Shown here in pieces: positions 4,089-27,072 of a stretch of 64,000 nucleotides of DNA. The stretch spans positions 32,001 to 96,000 of IMG/VR virus record IMGVR_UViG_3300037258_000147. One strand, 5' to 3'. The position numbers and the translations under genes were made by a program. The notes below the pieces were generated by a model. That model searched no databases. It was not told the origin of the DNA and saw nothing but the letters and a program-made list of their open reading frames with translations. The stretch is from a virus. Numbering within the stretch: position 1 is the stretch's first letter; each line of letters begins with the position of its first letter.

Positions 4089-6176
4089 TTAAACGAGAGA
4101 GCCGAACCCGCCAGAAGCGGACGGCGCTCCTGTCAAATCCTGCGGGGCTACTGATGCCTTGAAGCCCTCCCTCAAAACGTCTCTTGCCGCTCTCGCAACA
4201 TTTTCTGAGTCGGCTTGTTGTTCTTGTATCTGAGACCTTTGAGCCAACAGTTGCTGTTGTTGCTGGAACTTCTGTTCGTTTACTCCGCCTTGAGATTGCT
4301 GCTGCTGCCTTTGTTTATCTTCGTCCGTCATTGGTACAATAATGTCGTGGAAGTTTTTCATTTCAGCGGCTTCGAACCAGTTCCGGATAATCTCATCTAC
4401 ATTGACTTTCTTGCCTTCGATTGCTAGTTGTTCTACAATAGACGGCTGAGAAAGAAATTGAGTCAATTGGGGGAGGGCCTGAACCATAATCCGGCGAACC
4501 TGCATCTTGGACCCCGCCAGAATATCAAACTTTACTCTAGCGTTTAAGATGTCTAATAAGTCTCCAGGTTTACCTTCTTCATCTAAATACTCATGCTTTA
4601 GTTCGTCAGACATGACGTAGTTTAATTGGGACTCTGGCAACATAGCCCGATTCATTTCCTGAAATTCATATAGCATTGGAACTATAACTTGGTTCGCAAG
4701 TTTGTCCACGAAATCGGAAATCGGGTTGTAAGCACCTTGTAACAGTCCTTGAGCGCCCGCAGAACTTCTAGCTAGATTCGAGTGTCCGGACGACCCAGCT
4801 TGTCCCATAGAACTAATTGGGTTCGCGCCAGATACAGTTTCTACTCTGCCCTGGGACCAGCCTATTAAGGCTCCGGCCTCGGGGACTGGTGCTGGTCTGC
4901 CTAATGGCGCTAAGTCTCCTTGAGAGTCTACTTGAATAATTTTACCAGGACCGATGCGAATATTCTGGGTAGGAATACTCTTTCCACGGACCTGTACAAG
5001 CGGGGTATTTAAAGCAAGAGAAGCGTTGTCAATAATAAGATGGGTGATACCAGTTTGAAGTCTTTGCTCCGCCCCAATCGTGCGCCCGAGACCCAAAGAC
5101 CAGAAAGCTCCTGGGATGTCCCACCATCCGACAGAGAGAAACGGGATTTTCCCGTAAATATTTTTGTCGTTGTAGATTACAAGTTTTTTCTGTAAGGCTA
5201 TTATATAAGTGTTGTTATCCCAACGTTCTAAAACCTCTAGGGGTTTTTGTAACGGATCGGCGGTGGTTTCTTCCCAACGAGGTTCTGCCCGGGCTTCCCA
5301 TAAAGGATTCCTAGAGCCATCTTCAGACACGTTTGATTCTACAGGTTCCTGAGGCGGCAAGAATAATTTTAGTAAGTCGTCTTTGGAAGGAATTGTATAG
5401 CCGGGGCGGTCCCGGAGCTTGTCTAAATCCTCCCACGTCATGTACCGGCGGCGGATAACATATTTTGCCTTGCGGATATCAGGCACATTAAGGCCGGGGT
5501 CTACTAAGACCTCCCGCATGTTTACAATGTGCTCAAATATAGGCCGGTCTACTACTTCTTCAATTACTTCTTCTTCTAATTCCCCAGAAGACAGTCTGGT
5601 TGGGGGAGTGCCAGGAACTAAACTCGGAACTGTCGCAGTAGGAGTTTTACGCTTGATTATTTTCCGTTCTTTAGTAAACTTTTCCCAGCCCCATTGGAAT
5701 AACGCCGTGCCGAATAACAAGCAGTTTCTCGTCCCAAGGACCATTTCTGTCCGGAAATCTATATCGTCTAGTTGATAACCTAATAAAGCAGAAACAGCCC
5801 GGGCAGCCTGAGAACTAGTTCCTGGTCTTTCTTGGGTAACGAACGGAGGATTTTCATAAAACAATCCGGACATTACTTGCGGTACAATACCGTTTACTGA
5901 AGTAGCTACTGTGAAAAACGGGATACTAGCTGCTTCTGTGGTTGTTCCGGGCCAGCAGCGGGGGCTGTTCGGGCTTTCGTAAAGAAATCGACTCGCACTC
6001 CAGCTTAAAATCCAGGCTTTTGTGTTCTCGGCTTGCTCCGCTCTTTGAGCGTCCTGGACCACCAATTTCAAAGCAGGCGAGTCTTCTTCCCAATAGCCGA
6101 CGTGCATCCGAGAAATTGCCTCAGATGGCGTGATATCCATATTAGGGTTTATCTTCGGTTCAGGGAGTATTGACAT
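4089..6176 (-). CDS. Portal protein (podovirus-like)
   Basis: 695 aa with FGTALFQWGW, GKIPF and PGKII motifs and a Gln-rich C-terminal helix; near the terminase. Confidence 0.85.
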   Translation of the reverse strand: MSILPEPKINPNMDITPSEAISRMHVGYWEEDSPALKLVVQDAQRAEQAENTKAWILSWSASRFLYESPNSPRCWPGTTTEAASIPFFTVATSVNGIVPQVMSGLFYENPPFVTQERPGTSSQAARAVSALLGYQLDDIDFRTEMVLGTRNCLLFGTALFQWGWEKFTKERKIIKRKTPTATVPSLVPGTPPTRLSSGELEEEVIEEVVDRPIFEHIVNMREVLVDPGLNVPDIRKAKYVIRRRYMTWEDLDKLRDRPGYTIPSKDDLLKLFLPPQEPVESNVSEDGSRNPLWEARAEPRWEETTADPLQKPLEVLERWDNNTYIIALQKKLVIYNDKNIYGKIPFLSVGWWDIPGAFWSLGLGRTIGAEQRLQTGITHLIIDNASLALNTPLVQVRGKSIPTQNIRIGPGKIIQVDSQGDLAPLGRPAPVPEAGALIGWSQGRVETVSGANPISSMGQAGSSGHSNLARSSAGAQGLLQGAYNPISDFVDKLANQVIVPMLYEFQEMNRAMLPESQLNYVMSDELKHEYLDEEGKPGDLLDILNARVKFDILAGSKMQVRRIMVQALPQLTQFLSQPSIVEQLAIEGKKVNVDEIIRNWFEAAEMKNFHDIIVPMTDEDKQRQQQQSQGGVNEQKFQQQQQLLAQRSQIQEQQADSENVARAARDVLREGFKASVAPQDLTGAPSASGGFGSLV

Positions 6177-18474: not shown

Positions 18475-18553
18475 TGGTCCCCGAAGGGTGAATTGAACAC
18501 CCGATCTTTCGATTATCGGTCGAATGCTTTAAGCCAACTAAGCTATTCGGGGA
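18475..18553 (-). tRNA. tRNA-Ile(GAT)
   Basis: TTCGA-CCGATAA-TCGAA; C33; CCA end. Confidence 0.85.
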
Positions 18554-18631
18554 TGGTACCAGAGACTGGATTCGAACCAGTGAAATTTTCTTTGTAGGAG
18601 AAACGGTTTAGACCACTCACACCACTCTGGC
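18554..18631 (-). tRNA. tRNA-Val(TAC)
   Basis: TTTCT-CCTACAA-AGAAA; C33; CCA end. Confidence 0.85.
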
Positions 18632-18813: not shown

Positions 18814-18889
18814 TGGAACCGCTGGCCAGACTCGAACTGGCATCTCCTCTTACTCTGTCTCGTTTAGGAAACGAGTGAGATACAGCGGC
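18814..18889 (-). tRNA. D-armless tRNA-like RNA, anticodon CCT (Arg)
   Basis: Acceptor GCCGCTG/CAGCGGT, CTCGT-TTCCTAA-ACGAG, T arm GCCAG-TTCGAGT-CTGGC, TCCA end. Confidence 0.75.
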
Positions 18890-20394: not shown

Positions 20395-20437
20395 GTGTTT
20401 TAGCCTTTCATGTCGTTCAAAATTCTTGAATATCGAA

Positions 20438-20529
20438 TGGTGGGCGACGAGGGAATCGAACCCGTCTGGCATCTCTCATCTAGAGACTACAGGGTTTATA
20501 AGGCCCCGCCCCGTCCTACGGCATCGCCC
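20438..20529 (-). tRNA. 8/4 allo-tRNA-like RNA, anticodon TAT
   Basis: 8-bp acceptor GGGCGATG/CGTCGCCC, D arm CCGT-AGG-ACGG, long variable arm, short T stem, ACCA end. Confidence 0.7.
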
Positions 20530-20550
20530 AAACTTGTCCATTTAATGGAC

Positions 20551-20621
20551 TGGTCCCGAAGCGTGGAATCAAACCACTCACCTGGTCTTATGAGAACCAG
20601 TGCTGAATCATCAGCCTCGGG
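20551..20621 (-). tRNA. Compact 8/4 tRNA, anticodon CAT
   Basis: CCCGAGGC/GCTTCGGG acceptor, 6-bp anticodon stem, GTGG/CCAC T stem, 71 nt. Confidence 0.7.
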
Positions 20622-20627
20622 TAAAAC

Positions 20628-20702
20628 ATGGCAGGAGATGAAGGATTTGAACCCTCGAATCCCGGGTTGGAGCCGGGCGGTTTCCGTTAAGCCTAATCTC
20701 CC
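20628..20702 (-). tRNA. tRNA-Trp(CCA)
   Basis: CCCGG-CTCCAAC-CCGGG; GCCA end. Confidence 0.88.
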
Positions 20703-21121
20703 AAAAGATACTCGGATGCATTTTTTAGTAGAGAAGGATCGTCCTTAAAATGACCAATCCCTAGATTGCAACTCCTGCACAACAATCCTCTTACTTTTCC
20801 CGTAAGATGATCGTGATCAACATGCAAAGGTTTGTCGTCTTTCTTACCACAAATCTTACAAATCCCATTCTGCTGCGAAAATAAGAATAGGTATTCCGCT
20901 CCCGTCATCCCATATCTATTTGCTATTTTATAGCTAGGATGTGCTTTGTTCCATTTGTTTGCTTTAGAAATATATTTTTCTATGTTTCTGAGATAATGTT
21001 CTCTACGATAGTCGGCCTGGCAATCTCGGCATTGTTTATGCCTTATCCCTCTCGCTTCATCTCTAAAAGCAAAATCTTGTTCTTCGTCTTTAGAAGTATG
21101 ACATTTAGAACAAATACTCAT
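20693..21121 (-). CDS. Endonuclease VII-like (His-Me) nuclease
   Basis: QNGICKICG...LHVDHDH.TGKVRGLLC..CN..IG motif; stop codon overlaps the tRNA-Trp 5' end. Confidence 0.88.
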   Translation of the reverse strand: MSICSKCHTSKDEEQDFAFRDEARGIRHKQCRDCQADYRREHYLRNIEKYISKANKWNKAHPSYKIANRYGMTGAEYLFLFSQQNGICKICGKKDDKPLHVDHDHLTGKVRGLLCRSCNLGIGHFKDDPSLLKNASEYLLGD

Positions 21122-21136
21122 TTTATTATCAAGAAG

Positions 21137-21213
21137 TGGTAGCCCTAGTAGGATTCGAACCTACACTATGACTCGTTCGTAGCGAGTATGACTTTCCAGT
21201 TGCCGATAGGGCC
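21137..21213 (-). tRNA. tRNA-Arg(ACG)
   Basis: ACTCG-CTACGAA-CGAGT; CCA end. Confidence 0.88.
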
Positions 21214-21221
21214 GTAAAACT

Positions 21222-21295
21222 TGGTCTCCGAGCGGGGATTCAAACCCCGGACGCCGCGCCCCAAACGCGGAATGTTTTCACTACACTACTCAGAG
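21222..21295 (-). tRNA. tRNA-Pro(TGG)
   Basis: CCGCG-TTTGGGG-CGCGG; C1-G72, A73. Confidence 0.88.
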
Positions 21296-21300
21296 ATAAA

Positions 21301-21379
21301 TGGTGCGGGTGGCAGGATTTCAACCTGCGATCTCCTGTTCCCGAAACAGGCGCGTTAAGGCAAACTTCGCTACACCCAC
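21301..21379 (-). tRNA. tRNA-Pro(CGG)
   Basis: CCTGT-TTCGGGA-ACAGG; CCA end. Confidence 0.85.
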
Positions 21380-21494
21380 TTAAACTTTTCGGCCACGATA
21401 AAACTCTGTTCCCCCGCTTCCGACTAGGTTCGAACCTTCTGGGCGTTGGGTGTCTTGTTTTATCTTCGCTCTTTCGAACTAGGCCAAAACTTTA

Positions 21495-21569
21495 TGGTGG
21501 ACTCGGGCGGACTTGAACCGCCATCGCGCAAGGCTTCAACATGCCGCTCTACATTGGAGCTACGAGTCC
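21495..21569 (-). tRNA. tRNA-Phe(GAA)
   Basis: GCATG-TTGAAGC-CTTGC; CCA end. Confidence 0.85.
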
Positions 21570-21750
21570 GAATTTTGATATACGACTTGAGGTCGCTGCG
21601 ACTCCCGTAGGGGCCACTCTTTCTTGTGGTGTCAGCCAAAGCAACCCGATAGACATCTGACAATGCCCGTCAAATTACTCCCGTATAAACTTGGTGGACC
21701 TGTTGTCATCCCTCCGCGCTTTCGCTACGCGGCCCTATGAGGGTTTACGA

Positions 21751-21826
21751 TGGTGGACCCGGAGGGATTGCAACCCTCAAAACTACATTGCAGGTGTAGT
21801 ATGATCGCATGTTTCATCACGGGCCC
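21751..21826 (-). tRNA. tRNA-Ala(TGC)
   Basis: G3.U70, A73; CTACA-CCTGCAA-TGTAG; C33. Confidence 0.85.
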
Positions 21827-22076
21827 GTTTAAATCCAGTATACATTCCATCTTTTGCTAGAAAATGTTCAAGATCGTGGCAATTAGGACACAAAATTTCC
21901 AAATTGGACGGATCATTATTTGCGTGACTACGATCCTTATGGTGAACCTTCAAAATTCCAACTTGTTCATCATATCCGCATCGATTGCATTTCGAGGGAT
22001 AGTTTCTTCTTGCAATTTCCCGATAAGTCCCCTCTGGGGGGGGGGGGGGCGACCACCGAAGCAAGATATCCACCAT
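21783..22076 (-). CDS. HNH endonuclease (N-terminus possibly degenerate)
   Basis: CNRCGY...LKVHHKD...NN..SNL..LCPNCH; 3' end reads into tRNA-Ala. Confidence 0.75.
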   Translation of the reverse strand: MVDILLRWSPPPPPEGTYREIARRNYPSKCNRCGYDEQVGILKVHHKDRSHANNDPSNLEILCPNCHDLEHFLAKDGMYTGFKRARDETCDHTTPAM

Positions 22077-22144
22077 CTGTAGAACTTCTACGCTACAGAA
22101 CGTTCGTCACTCCAGAGTTTAGCATCCTCTGACACTTTCAAAAA

Positions 22145-22377
22145 GTCCCGCTGGTCCTCACCAATACCCGAGTCGAACGGGAAAGCGGGTTTGTCGCAGC
22201 CTACCATTAGAAGACGGTCCAAAGACCGGAGAGATTCGAACTCTCATTTACGACCCACATCAAGCCAGACATCCTATCCACTAGACGACGCTCCGACTCG
22301 GGGACTGTTTACTCGTGTTTGCATCCACGTCAGTCCTTGCTCAGAACGGGATGATTCGAACATCCGTCCTCTGGCAC
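22145..22377 (-). ncRNA. Tandem circularly permuted tRNA-like modules (YrlA-like topology)
   Basis: Three TTCGA T-arms; two of them are followed by a loop-closed acceptor stem and a D arm. Confidence 0.7.
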
Positions 22378-22379
22378 CT

Positions 22380-22455
22380 TGGAGGGAAGGGAGCGAGTCG
22401 AACGCTCTAAAGACATGATCCACAATCATGCGCCGCACCGTTTGGCTTCCAACCC
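22380..22455 (-). tRNA. tRNA-His(GTG)
   Basis: CATGA-TTGTGGA-TCATG; CCA end. Confidence 0.8.
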
Positions 22456-22674
22456 AATTTTTGTTGTCCATTTTATGGACTAAATTTGAGGACCAGACCG
22501 TTGGACACCTCGTTGCTTATTGCGGTCGGCTTGATCTCTTTTATGCGGAAGCCGAGTGGTAATCTTCCGCAGAGCCAAACTCACGGTGTAAATTTGTCGG
22601 TGCTCTCCCTGGTGTCACACCACTGGTTAGGCAAAAGGTATTAGCTCTGCTACCGGGCAAGGTGTCGCCCATTA

Positions 22675-22745
22675 TGGAGCCGATGTACGGAGTTCAACCG
22701 TCAGGAACTCTTTACAGGAGAGTGCCGCTTGCGAAGCACATCGGC
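22675..22745 (-). tRNA. Compact 8/4 tRNA, anticodon TGT (Thr)
   Basis: Perfect 8-bp GCCGATGT/ACATCGGC, D arm GCTT-CGC-AAGC, T stem ACGG/CCGT, 71 nt. Confidence 0.75.
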
Positions 22746-23344: not shown

Positions 23345-23362
23345 AGCTTCCTTTTCAAAGAG

Positions 23363-23434
23363 AGGTCGAAGTCGGAACTGCCCCGACACCGTATCCATAC
23401 CAGGGATACATTCTTCTAGTTAAACTATTCGACC
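23363..23434 (-). tRNA. tRNA-Thr(GGT), divergent T loop, no encoded CCA
   Basis: TATCC-CTGGTAT-GGATA; acceptor GGTCGAA/TTCGACC. Confidence 0.7.
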
Positions 23435-23438
23435 AAAT

Positions 23439-23514
23439 TGGAGCACCTGACCGGAGTCGAACCGGTGACTTCCTCTTTACGGGAGAGGCGCTGTGCCGTC
23501 TGAGCCACAGGTGC
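23439..23514 (-). tRNA. tRNA-Thr(CGT)
   Basis: CCTCT-CCCGTAA-AGAGG; C33; CCA end. Confidence 0.88.
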
Positions 23515-24592: not shown

Positions 24593-24669
24593 TGGTAGGG
24601 ATGGTGAGGCTCTAACTCACTAGGACGTGGGTGAAGGCCACGGCACTCGAACACTTTGTATTCATCCCC
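24593..24669 (-). tRNA. tRNA-Glu(TTC)
   Basis: CGTGG-CCTTCAC-CCACG; C33; divergent D and T loops. Confidence 0.75.
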
Positions 24670-25514: not shown

Positions 25515-25589
25515 TGGTAGCCTACCAGAGAATCAAACTCTGTTCTCGATCTTGAGAAAATCGCATCCTAATCAGTAGAAGAGTAGGCC
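25515..25589 (-). tRNA. tRNA-Glu(CTC)
   Basis: CGATT-TTCTCAA-GATCG; CCA end. Confidence 0.85.
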
Positions 25590-25713: not shown

Positions 25714-25791
25714 TGGTTGCGGCTCTCGGGAGTTGAACCCGGTATCCCAAGGGTATGAGTCTTGGATGGTCATCCGTTCCACTCAGCCGCA
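25714..25791 (-). tRNA. tRNA-Met(CAT), initiator-like acceptor stem
   Basis: TGCGGCT/AGCCGCA-ACCA; CAAGA-CTCATAC-CCTTG. Confidence 0.78.
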
Positions 25792-26745: not shown

Positions 26746-26833
26746 TGGCGGAAGATGAAGTAATCGAAACCTTGTCCATTTAATGGACAGCATCGGGTTC
26801 GAGCCGATTTGACCGCCTTGGTCGCCATCTTCC
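26746..26833 (-). tRNA. tRNA-Ser(CGA), 8/4-type
   Basis: GGAAGATG/CATCTTCC acceptor; ATCGG-CTCGAAC-CCGAT; variable arm is the GTCC-N7-GGAC palindrome. Confidence 0.8.
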
Positions 26834-26979: not shown

Positions 26980-27072
26980 TGGCGGAGAGTGAGGGCTTCG
27001 ATCCCCCGTGTCCAAATAATGGACAGCCTCTGTTTAGCAAACAGGCACAATACCGGGCTCTGTCAACTCTCC
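26980..27072 (-). tRNA. tRNA-Ser(GCT)
   Basis: CTGT-TTGCTAA-ACAG; variable arm is the GTCC-N7-GGAC palindrome. Confidence 0.85.

Follow-up and report, generated by a model that had tools for sequence, protein, structure and literature searches.

Two compact phage tRNA genes with anticodons CAU and UGU whose best fold is an 8/4 cloverleaf

Introduction

Two genes of 71 nt in the tRNA array of a phage raise the question whether a tRNA of class-I size can be built on an 8/4 branch, with an 8-bp acceptor stem and a 4-bp T stem, and still serve in translation. The 8/4 fold has been described for allo-tRNAs and for Ser and His tRNAs (Mukai et al., Nucleic Acids Res 2017, PMC5389517), and tRNA clusters of phages are among the places where the Ser and His forms have been found (PMC5389517). 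The first-pass annotation, whose account of this background is correct according to the same paper, had assigned the two genes to a class-I-sized 8/4 family with an altered elbow.

Two uncalled genes in a near-complete array

The window, i.e., the whole 64-kb stretch of DNA that was analysed, belongs to a phage record of 104,680 bp. It carries a tRNA array at 18.4-27.8 kb, in which one strand carries 28 tRNAs called by ARAGORN and about 8 other tRNA-like genes that end in CCA. Both CAT and TGT are missing from the 28 called genes. Compact 71-nt genes for these two anticodons had been proposed from the sequence, and both were confirmed, on the minus strand:

20551..20621, minus strand: c1, tRNA gene with anticodon CAU, 71 nt (sequence, MFE fold, ARAGORN -mt, synteny)
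20614..20621, minus strand: c1 acceptor 5' strand, tRNA positions 1-8 (partner strand 20555-20562)
20604..20613, minus strand: c1 D hairpin, 3-bp stem UGA/UCA, loop UGAU with G18 and A19 (fold, pair probabilities)
20590..20592, minus strand: c1 anticodon CAT, loop CUCAUAA on a 6-bp stem (fold and ARAGORN)
20563..20577, minus strand: c1 T arm, 4-bp stem GUGG/CCAC, 7-nt loop UUUGAUU with U56 (fold)
22675..22745, minus strand: c2, tRNA gene with anticodon UGU (Thr), 71 nt (sequence, MFE fold, ARAGORN, synteny)
22738..22745, minus strand: c2 acceptor 5' strand, positions 1-8 (partner strand 22679-22686)
22727..22737, minus strand: c2 D hairpin, 4-bp stem GCUU/AAGC, loop CGC with G18 and C19 (fold, pair probabilities)
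22714..22716, minus strand: c2 anticodon TGT, loop CCUGUAA with C at position 33
22687..22701, minus strand: c2 T arm, 4-bp stem ACGG/CCGU, 7-nt loop UUGAACU with G56 (fold)

No TGT gene other than c2 was found in the array, and a second CAT gene, likewise uncalled by ARAGORN, lies at 25714-25791. Standard ARAGORN detected neither c1 nor c2; only its metazoan-mitochondrial mode or an 80% score cut did. Searched as 83-nt slices, the two genes gave no match to RF00005 at E ≤ 10 (gathering threshold 29 bits), and an Rfam search of the array and the slices returned for them only noise, e.g., a snoRNA model at 17 bits. The canonical class-I traits of an 8-9 linker, a 7-11-nt D loop with G18G19, and C56 are not present in either gene.

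The shared plan consists of an 8-bp acceptor stem, a 4-bp T stem and a 3-4-bp D hairpin with a 3-4-nt loop that follows the acceptor stem without a linker, in a co-linear cloverleaf. The MFE folds thereby bear out the tiny linker-free D arm and the 8- and 4-bp stems of the first reading. Its remark that length and architecture agree while the sequences are unrelated also held, as the structural alignment of c1 with c2 runs without a gap across 71 nt; MAFFT did not reproduce this gap-free alignment. The variable region measures 4-5 nt (2 nt in the MFE fold).

In c2, the encoded 3' end is CCA after discriminator U73, and the MFE fold is an 8/4 cloverleaf with a z-score of -2.8. All 8 bp of the acceptor stem are Watson-Crick pairs, including U8:A65 with a pair probability of 0.95; bases 49 and 65 face each other as a G.A mismatch. 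Thus, 8:65 is paired, 49:65 is unpaired and the branch holds 12 bp in all, which is what defines an 8/4 tRNA. The 8/4 fold is ahead of 7-bp alternatives by 1.2-1.4 kcal/mol, and part of the ensemble adopts a 9/3 alternative (G9.U). ARAGORN named the gene Thr(tgt) both at -ps80 and in -mt mode. The identity set known for ThrRS from E. coli comprises G1-C72, C2-G71, G35, and U36, all four of which are found in c2 (4/4), and U73 is shared with the other Thr tRNAs of the arrays examined. Judged by these sequence marks, c2 is a tRNA-Thr(UGU). Position 33, a near-universal U in tRNAs, is C in c2.

The encoded 3' end of c1 is CCA after discriminator A73, and its MFE fold is likewise an 8/4 cloverleaf (z-score -2.4). 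One G.U pair stands among the 8 bp of the acceptor stem, C8 forms a Watson-Crick pair with G65 (canonical numbering), and the 49:65 juxtaposition is an A.G mismatch. The pair probability is 0.72 for C8:G65 versus 0.27 for C8 in the D stem, and 8/4 is ahead of 7-bp alternatives by only 1.0 kcal/mol. In metazoan-mitochondrial mode ARAGORN called c1 Met(cat) with an 8-bp acceptor and a 4-bp T stem. The gene has the elongator tRNA-Met marks of CAU, A73, and the canonical loop CUCAUAA. Initiator tRNA-Met is marked by a 1:72 mismatch and three G-C pairs at the foot of the anticodon stem; these are absent from c1, where C1-G72 is paired and the anticodon stem has no GGG/CCC run. As a CAU tRNA, c1 is therefore most likely an elongator Met tRNA, and it may alternatively be an Ile2 tRNA with lysidine at C34.

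The gap between the CCA of the Trp tRNA and the start of c1 is 7 nt. On its other side, a palindrome GTCCAT-W4-ATGGAC at 20536..20550 directly touches the CCA end. This palindrome occurs genome-wide, with 18 distinct sites in the window versus 0 expected.

Neighbours and related phages

Two further members of the array, both on the minus strand, bear on the comparison:

20438..20529, minus strand: UAU tRNA of allo-tRNA type, 92 nt, with a long variable arm (neighbour of c1)
26746..26833, minus strand: tRNA-Ser(CGA), 8/4, with G8-C65 and an A49.C65 mismatch (sequence/fold)

The UAU tRNA has an 8-bp acceptor stem, no linker, a 4-bp D stem and a 3-nt loop, and is conserved in L091, L092, L094, and L095 as well as in many further phage arrays. 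The Ser(CGA) gene is 8/4, so the published 8/4 class is present in the array of c1 and c2; related arrays hold two to three 8/4 Ser tRNAs each. An ARAGORN-called Cys gene in the array is probably a Val gene that was apparently mis-assigned.

The related phages share 66-70% terminase identity. A 777-aa tail-fibre-like protein was also tried as a guide to relatives and set aside, as its matches shared only a modular C-terminal domain and no DNA of the tRNA region. The slot orders Trp-Met(CAT)-UAU-Lys(CTT) and Thr(CGT)-Thr(GGT)-Thr(TGT) are kept in the related phages, with c1 syntenic with their CAT tRNA and c2 with their Thr(TGT). These positional orthologues are 7/5. The 7/5 Thr(TGT) orthologues share with c2 the loop CCUGUAA (seen in those of L091, L110, and L111), the T loop UUGAACU and the 3' end. 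The CAT slot varies among relatives, being canonical in L091/L092, carrying a mini D arm in L111, and folding poorly in L095.

An exact scan of IMG/VR with the c1 anticodon arm gave no match, nor did patterns of either gene that fixed the loops and ends and left the stems free. A scan of JGI metagenomes with c2 returned only 7/5 orthologues and none of the same fold. The "family" of the first-pass annotation thus shrinks to two singleton genes in one genome, with 7/5 genes in the orthologous positions and no same-fold orthologue found in these collections, from which very close records may be missing.

8/4 or 7/5

The two genes might instead be working tRNAs with a 7/5-type branch and a purine-purine mismatch at 49:65, better termed "mini-D-arm" than 8/4; base 8 would then act as a one-base linker in c2, and in c1 it would start a D stem of 4 bp. 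Several observations are in line with this proposal. The energy gap is only 1-1.4 kcal/mol, C8 has a pair probability of 0.27 in the c1 D stem, and ARAGORN draws c2 as 7/5 with a mismatch. The positional orthologues are 7/5, and so are the Met tRNA of L111 (4360-4431) and the Trp tRNAs of L091/L092, whose mini D arm likewise lacks a linker; in that Met tRNA and in the relatives' Trp tRNAs, C8 closes a D stem of 4 bp. However, the MFE fold and the ensemble prefer 8/4, and so do the paralogues.

The paralogue sample comprised 233 tRNAs from 19 phage arrays. A Watson-Crick 8:65 pair was present in 10 of the 13 tRNAs without a 49:65 pair versus 13/220 with one (Fisher p = 2.6e-9). The ten are c1, c2, and eight tRNAs of the published 8/4 types (seven Ser tRNAs with a long arm, one tRNA for His); both genes under study thus join a non-pairing 49:65 to a Watson-Crick 8:65 for which the background rate is 13/220. 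The three array tRNAs without either pair show A.C or U.C at 49:65, never a purine-purine mismatch. From the rate of 8:65 pairing in tRNAs without a 49:65 pair, 8/4 is the better reading of c1 and c2, and we regard the 7/5 proposal as doubtful. The fold assignment of c1 as an 8/4 tRNA is nevertheless partly ambiguous, owing to the energy margin of only 1-1.4 kcal/mol and the lack of a same-fold orthologue among those found. Thr(GGT) of L111 and Thr(CGT) of L109 were considered as further class-I 8/4 tRNAs and rejected, since 7/5 is the best fold of either one, with G.U pairing at 49:65 and a D stem of 6 bp.

The elbow contact

The first reading had pointed to D loops with "no GG" and to an altered elbow. 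The former is literally true, although each loop has a G followed by the complement of base 56. Across the arrays, a G with the complement of N56 was found in the D region of 212/220 tRNAs versus 170 ± 4 after shuffling, and among tRNAs without C56 the 19:56 rule was obeyed in 50/52 versus 33 ± 2.8 shuffled. The rule is kept in c1 (A19:U56) and c2 (C19:G56), each preceded by G18. On this covariation test, an elbow lost for want of GG was rejected and the altered elbow finds no support, and the contact between D loop and T loop looks preserved rather than lost. The evasion of host tRNases or modification enzymes that the first reading had suggested is speculative. Anticodon loops with C33 and swapped elbow pairs occur throughout the arrays, and they may be the more interesting lead.

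Proposed role of the two genes

We think it probable, from sequence and predicted fold, that c1 and c2 belong to a near-complete array as genuine tRNA genes with a compacted 8/4 body, and that their products are charged and decode. Base 8 would pair with base 65, so that an 8-bp acceptor stem stacks on a 4-bp T stem; such stacking would preserve the feature recognised by EF-Tu, an acceptor branch of 12 bp (Mukai et al. 2017, PMC5389517). The D arm would shrink to a short hairpin (stem 3-4 bp, loop 3-4 nt) straight after the acceptor stem, still providing G18 and a base 19 partner for T-loop base 56, and the anticodon helix would be longer by two extra pairs. The genes are presumably co-transcribed with the rest of the array, host enzymes would trim the transcripts, and their products could then be charged by host MetRS and ThrRS via anticodon, discriminator, and first acceptor pairs. 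During infection they would decode AUG and ACA/ACG like their 7/5 counterparts in related phages. In 23 long ORFs, ACA accounts for 125/691 Thr codons, and ATG occurs 160 times.

A bolder and rather unlikely proposal is that this phage group has purposely remodelled its tRNAs, with c1 and c2 as the most extreme members of a "stealth" set that is charged and used on host ribosomes while going unseen by host tRNA-targeting nucleases or other defence factors. Its features would be the 8/4 branches, linker-free mini D arms, A:U/C:G/U:A elbow pairs, and C33 loops.

Less likely again are decaying or non-translational tRNA-like genes, either pseudogenes with a D-arm deletion or decoys and regulators acting off the ribosome. 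The rejection of both genes by standard detectors would fit, as would the failure to find a same-fold orthologue (in IMG/VR and, for c2, JGI metagenomes) and the structural instability of the CAT slot across relatives. Damaged-looking array members do exist; for example, Thr(GGT) of the window lacks CCA and its T loop is odd, L093 holds a remnant of 66 nt at 4091-4156, and the Met gene of L095 folds poorly. In addition, some irregular 8/4 tRNAs are charged yet unused in translation (Mukai et al. 2017, PMC5389517). In c1 and c2, however, all helices are intact, CCA and cognate-type discriminators are retained, the 12-bp acceptor branch is exactly maintained in the best fold, and the 19:56 pair with G18 persists despite a D loop of 3-4 nt. 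Their anticodon loops are identical to those of functional-looking orthologues; moreover, c2 is the sole TGT gene found, and CAT has one other gene.

Finally, chance cloverleaf-like folds in spacer DNA, with nothing in their favour beyond the silence of standard tools, are extremely improbable and effectively refuted, since the genes have the strand, spacing, CCA and synteny of array tRNAs, and a strict architecture descriptor gave exactly 2 matches, c1 and c2, on both strands of the 64-kb window and 0 in 30 first-order Markov simulations of it, also without the CCA requirement. Class searches relied on hand-written descriptors. Class-I size with 8/4 as the best fold, as first proposed, therefore stands above chance by folds, pair probabilities, descriptor, and paralogue statistic.

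If the genuine tRNAs that we favour are charged and used, the 8/4 design reaches past Ser, His, Cys, and Sec to class-I Met and Thr, and a linker-free D arm of 10-11 nt can still make the elbow contact. Compact natural tRNAs of this kind are useful scaffolds for orthogonal translation. Because standard tRNA finders overlook such genes, counts of phage tRNA complements come out too low; in this array about 8 of ~36 genes were missed. The swapped 19:56 pairs and C33 also offer a testable handle on whether host tRNA-targeting defences shape phage tRNAs.

Comparison with known systems

Relative to published 8/4 tRNAs, c1 and c2 appear to be new in combining Met and Thr anticodons, class-I size and no linker. 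With 8/4 His and Ser tRNAs they share the 12-bp branch split as 8+4 (in c1 less certainly, by its best fold), the location in phage arrays, and a compact D arm (loop of 3-4 nt); with 8/4 His they also share the class-I size. An 8/4 His tRNA was recovered at L046:15402-15476, together with several 8/4 Ser tRNAs, one of them in the window. In contrast to these, c1 has a Met-type (CAU) and c2 a Thr (UGU) identity, both absent from the reported set, the D stem has 3-4 bp versus 5-6, and the elbow pair is A:U or C:G versus G:C. The L046 His tRNA has one nucleotide between acceptor and D stems, whereas c1 and c2 have none.

Allo-tRNAs (8/4 or 9/3) have the same 8-bp acceptor stem leading directly into a short-looped D hairpin, and the neighbouring UAU gene shows the same 5' architecture as c1 and c2. 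Allo-tRNAs are recognised by a long variable arm, Ser-type G73/U73, and a mostly non-Ser anticodon. This combination was not found in c1 or c2, which differ in having neither the long arm nor Ser-type identity (c1 has A73) and in anticodons that agree with the acceptor-end marks.

The tRNA-Pyl of M. alvus works without an acceptor-to-D linker and with a 4-nt D loop (PMC7609411), and tRNA-Pyl and mammalian mitochondrial tRNA-Ser(UCN) are active on ribosomes (PMC7609411). Both resemble c1 and c2 in a linker of 0-1 nt, a GG-less D loop of 4-5 nt, an anticodon stem that is longer or interrupted, and a short variable loop. Their acceptor branch, however, is 7/5, their anticodons are others (tRNA-Pyl is marked by CUA, c1 and c2 have CAU and UGU), and PylRS is a dedicated synthetase. 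The resemblance to these tRNAs is one of architecture only, with no homology.

Similar tRNAs are also found in the same phage group, in the mini-D-arm 7/5 tRNAs for Trp of L091/L092 (70-71 nt) and Met of L111 (72 nt), the latter in the same array slot as c1. They too place the D hairpin directly after the acceptor stem and have a 3-nt loop, but they differ from c1 and c2 in a Watson-Crick or wobble pair at 49:65, a 5-bp T stem, and GG D loops paired with C56.

Genome context and tRNA array

The window covers bases 32001-96000 of an IMG/VR virus record of 104,680 bp with a completeness estimate of 97%, and PHROG matches identified a large terminase, a portal protein, a DNA polymerase and a RecT-like protein. 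The 28 tRNA genes called by ARAGORN share the minus strand and fall within 18.4-27.8 kb of the window, interspersed with endonuclease VII and HNH homing-type genes. A scan for a 7-bp terminal helix followed by NCCA showed that CCA is encoded in nearly all of these tRNA genes, Thr(GGT) and His not being picked up. It also yielded about eight extra tRNA-like genes missed by, or below threshold in, ARAGORN and Rfam, including the two studied here, c1 (anticodon CAU) and c2 (UGU).

Further tRNA genes of the array (window coordinates, all minus strand)
24593-24669: Glu(UUC), CCA-ended, missed by ARAGORN
25515-25589: Glu(CUC), CCA-ended, missed by ARAGORN
25714-25791: second CAU tRNA, CCA-ended, missed by ARAGORN; upstream of Asp and syntenic with a Met gene of phage locus L111
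26746-26833: Ser(CGA), CCA-ended, missed by ARAGORN; 8/4 fold
23362-23434: Thr(GGT), without encoded CCA; non-canonical T loop GGCAGUU
22380-22455: His, by eye with two U.U acceptor-stem mismatches and without G-1
18814-18889: CCU-anticodon tRNA-like gene
20438-20529: long-arm UAU tRNA

The CCU gene (76-79 nt) is kept in a related phage (L095:964-1042); its acceptor stem and anticodon arm are only about 7 nt apart, with a D-like segment located 3' of the anticodon arm. The UAU tRNA (91-95 nt) is of allo-tRNA type: its acceptor stem has 8 bp, its D hairpin follows without a linker and its variable arm is long. Further copies are at L091:7201-7293, L092:7049-7139, L095:578-671 and L098:783-877 and in L099, L100, L103 and L106; the gene is conserved beside the CAT tRNA in this phage group and is present in several unrelated phage arrays too. 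The window has the palindrome GTCCAT-W4-ATGGAC at 18 distinct sites where 0 are expected (20536-20550, 22466-22480, 26774-26788, 27010-27024 and about 14 more). One of these copies is directly next to the CCA of c1 and another is ahead of tRNA-His; two others make up the variable arms of Ser(CGA) and Ser(GCT).

About 35 of some 200 array tRNAs carry C rather than the near-universal U at position 33, examples in the window being 18554-18631 (minus strand), 23439-23514, 18475-18552, 21751-21826, 24593-24669 and 22675-22745. The ARAGORN call 'Cys(aca)' at 18554-18631 appears to be an artefact of forced U33: with C33, the loop CCUACAA makes this gene a probable Val(UAC) with A73, filling an otherwise missing Val slot.

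Architecture of c1 and c2

The first-pass annotation had described two compact 71-nt tRNAs with an 8-bp acceptor stem and a 4-bp T stem (8/4), alike in length and architecture and unrelated in sequence. This description was borne out for c1 (20621 to 20551) and c2 (22745 to 22675), both on the minus strand and 71 nt long with CCA counted in. The two are structurally co-linear with zero gaps, an alignment that a sequence aligner did not reproduce.

Structural elements of the two genes
Acceptor stem: c1, 8 bp; c2, 8 bp
Acceptor-to-D-arm linker: c1, none; c2, none
D stem / loop: c1, 3 bp / UGAU; c2, 4 bp / CGC
Connector: c1, 3 nt; c2, 3 nt
Anticodon arm, 7-nt loop: c1, CUCAUAA; c2, CCUGUAA
Variable loop: c1, 4-5 nt; c2, 4-5 nt
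T stem / loop: c1, 4 bp / 7 nt; c2, 4 bp / 7 nt
Discriminator and 3' end: c1, A73, CCA; c2, U73, CCA

The minimum-free-energy folds of both are this cloverleaf plus two pairs extending the anticodon helix (z-scores -2.4 for c1 and -2.8 for c2). A strict architecture descriptor, run on both strands (128 kb of real sequence), matched only c1 and c2; it matched nothing in 30 simulated windows, whether or not CCA was required. No ORF of at least 60 aa overlaps c2; the sole ORF overlapping c1 (112 aa, plus strand, 20410-20748) extends over three tRNA genes and is likely to be spurious.

Identity as tRNA genes

In 83-nt slices, the Rfam tRNA model gave zero matches for c1 or c2 at E ≤ 10, and standard ARAGORN calls neither, while both are called in its metazoan-mitochondrial mode, where c1 is shown with an 8-bp acceptor stem and a 4-bp T stem. 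Against these standard-tool negatives we regard genomic context as decisive and take c1 and c2 to be tRNA genes. CAT and TGT are absent from the 28 ARAGORN-called anticodons; c2 is the sole TGT gene found, and CAT has the second, uncalled gene at 25714-25791. Homologous arrays occur in phages whose terminase is 66-70% identical, and among these relatives the orders Trp, CAT, long-arm UAU, Lys(CTT) and Thr(CGT), Thr(GGT), Thr(TGT) are conserved, with c1 and c2 exactly in the CAT and TGT slots. c2 shares the loop CCUGUAA, the T loop UUGAACU and the 3' end with Thr(TGT) of L091, L110 and L111, and its identity marks (G1-C72, C2-G71, G35, U36, U73) are those of all other array Thr tRNAs. c1 has CAU, A73, a paired 1:72 and an anticodon stem not of initiator type. 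The phage's codon use shows ACA for 125 of 691 Thr codons and 160 occurrences of ATG in 23 long ORFs.

8/4 or 7/5 fold

The standard 7/5 fold uses a 49:65 pair, which cannot form in c1 (A.G) or c2 (G.A), while 8:65 is Watson-Crick in both (C-G and U-A). A table of these positions was drawn up for 19 phage arrays, which together gave 233 distinct CCA-ended tRNAs. Where 49:65 is unpaired (13 tRNAs), 8:65 is Watson-Crick in 10 and not in 3; where it is paired (220 tRNAs), the figures are 13 and 207 (odds ratio 53, Fisher p = 2.6e-9). The ten comprise c1, c2, seven long-arm Ser tRNAs and one His tRNA (L046:15402-15476; clean 8/4 fold, z = -4.3), and the seven Ser and the His of L046 match exactly the 8/4 types published from phage tRNA clusters (Mukai et al. 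2017, PMC5389517). In the three exceptions, base 8 is U and 49:65 is A.C or U.C. Because of this association and the published types, we conclude that 8/4 is a real class within these arrays and that c1 and c2 carry its signature.

Modeled thermodynamics supports 8/4 weakly: the 8:65 pair probability is 0.72 in c1 and 0.95 in c2, and 8/4 is favored over 7-bp alternatives by 1.0 kcal/mol (c1) and 1.2-1.4 kcal/mol (c2). In c1 the alternative has C8 closing a 4-bp D stem, as base 8 also does in the 7/5 Met of L111 (4360-4431) and the 70-71-nt Trp of L091 and L092; in c2 a 9/3 form is populated too. We consider the 8/4 fold probable in c1 and well supported in c2.

The elbow pair

Elbow positions were compared in 19 arrays (window 18.4-27.8 kb, L046, L082, L086, L087, L089-L095, L098, L099, L102, L103, L106, L107 and L109), with L110 and L111 scanned additionally. 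In 52 of 220 array tRNAs the T loop has a base other than C at position 56; the D loop of such tRNAs shows a G and, next to it, the base that can pair with 56 (GA with U56, GC with G56, GU with A56). A G with the complement of base 56 was present in 212 of all 220 tRNAs (170 ± 4 with N56 shuffled) and in 50 of the 52 without C56 (33 ± 2.8). The 19:56 pair, other than G:C in 52 of 220 tRNAs, covaries through all four Watson-Crick combinations, a diversity unusual in non-mitochondrial tRNAs.

Both c1 (UGAU, U56) and c2 (CGC, G56) follow the rule, so G18 and a Watson-Crick 19:56 pair remain available despite their tiny D loops. An altered elbow, earlier read from the missing GG, was therefore not upheld. 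The kept pair argues for a selected, normal L shape and speaks against a lost elbow as well as against decay.

Orthologues and origin

The architecture was not found in any other gene examined in IMG/VR, one metagenome scan and the fetched phage loci, the collections scanned possibly lacking records very close to this genome. An exact scan of IMG/VR for the c1 anticodon arm gave zero matches, as did loop-and-end patterns of both genes with stems left free, and all that the metagenome scan with c2 brought up were 75-nt orthologues of the 7/5 type. Under a relaxed descriptor, the L046 His was the only clear class-I 8/4 tRNA in 1.5 Mb of fetched phage loci. When c2 is compared with its orthologues, the 8-9 linker and five D-loop bases are gone, the connector is two bases longer, and one pair belongs to the acceptor stem instead of the T stem. 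The CAT slot holds a canonical tRNA in L091 and L092, a mini D arm in L111, a poor fold in L095 and the probable 8/4 form here, and is structurally unstable across the phage group.

A Sec-like D arm (6 bp, 4-nt loop) was seen in four class-I tRNAs: Thr at L111:1846-1921, Thr and one more tRNA at L109 2080-2155 and 2896-2971 (minus strand), and Met at L095:494-571. Two of these, from different amino-acid families, have an identical D-arm sequence.

Proposed working and comparison with known tRNAs

From the sequence features, statistics and synteny, we infer that c1 and c2 are probably transcribed as part of the array, after which host RNase P and 3' nucleases would trim them; the encoded CCA makes CCA addition unnecessary. 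Near-normal L-shape dimensions would follow from the 12-bp acceptor branch, the 19:56 pair and the lengthened anticodon helix, and charging may proceed via the anticodon, discriminator and first acceptor pairs, all intact. A functional precedent for a linker-free D arm with a 4-nt loop is M. alvus tRNA-Pyl (PMC7609411).

An allo-tRNA reading was rejected because there is no long variable arm and identity marks agree with the anticodons; c1 and c2 are not Pyl tRNAs either. Among known classes the (8/4) tRNA-His and tRNA-Ser of phage clusters come closest; c1 and c2 differ from these in being Met-type and Thr, in lacking the acceptor-to-D linker, in a D stem of 3-4 bp and in an elbow pair other than G:C. 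Each a singleton with a small fold margin and a predicted function, they would extend the known 8/4 kind to Met-type and Thr tRNAs.
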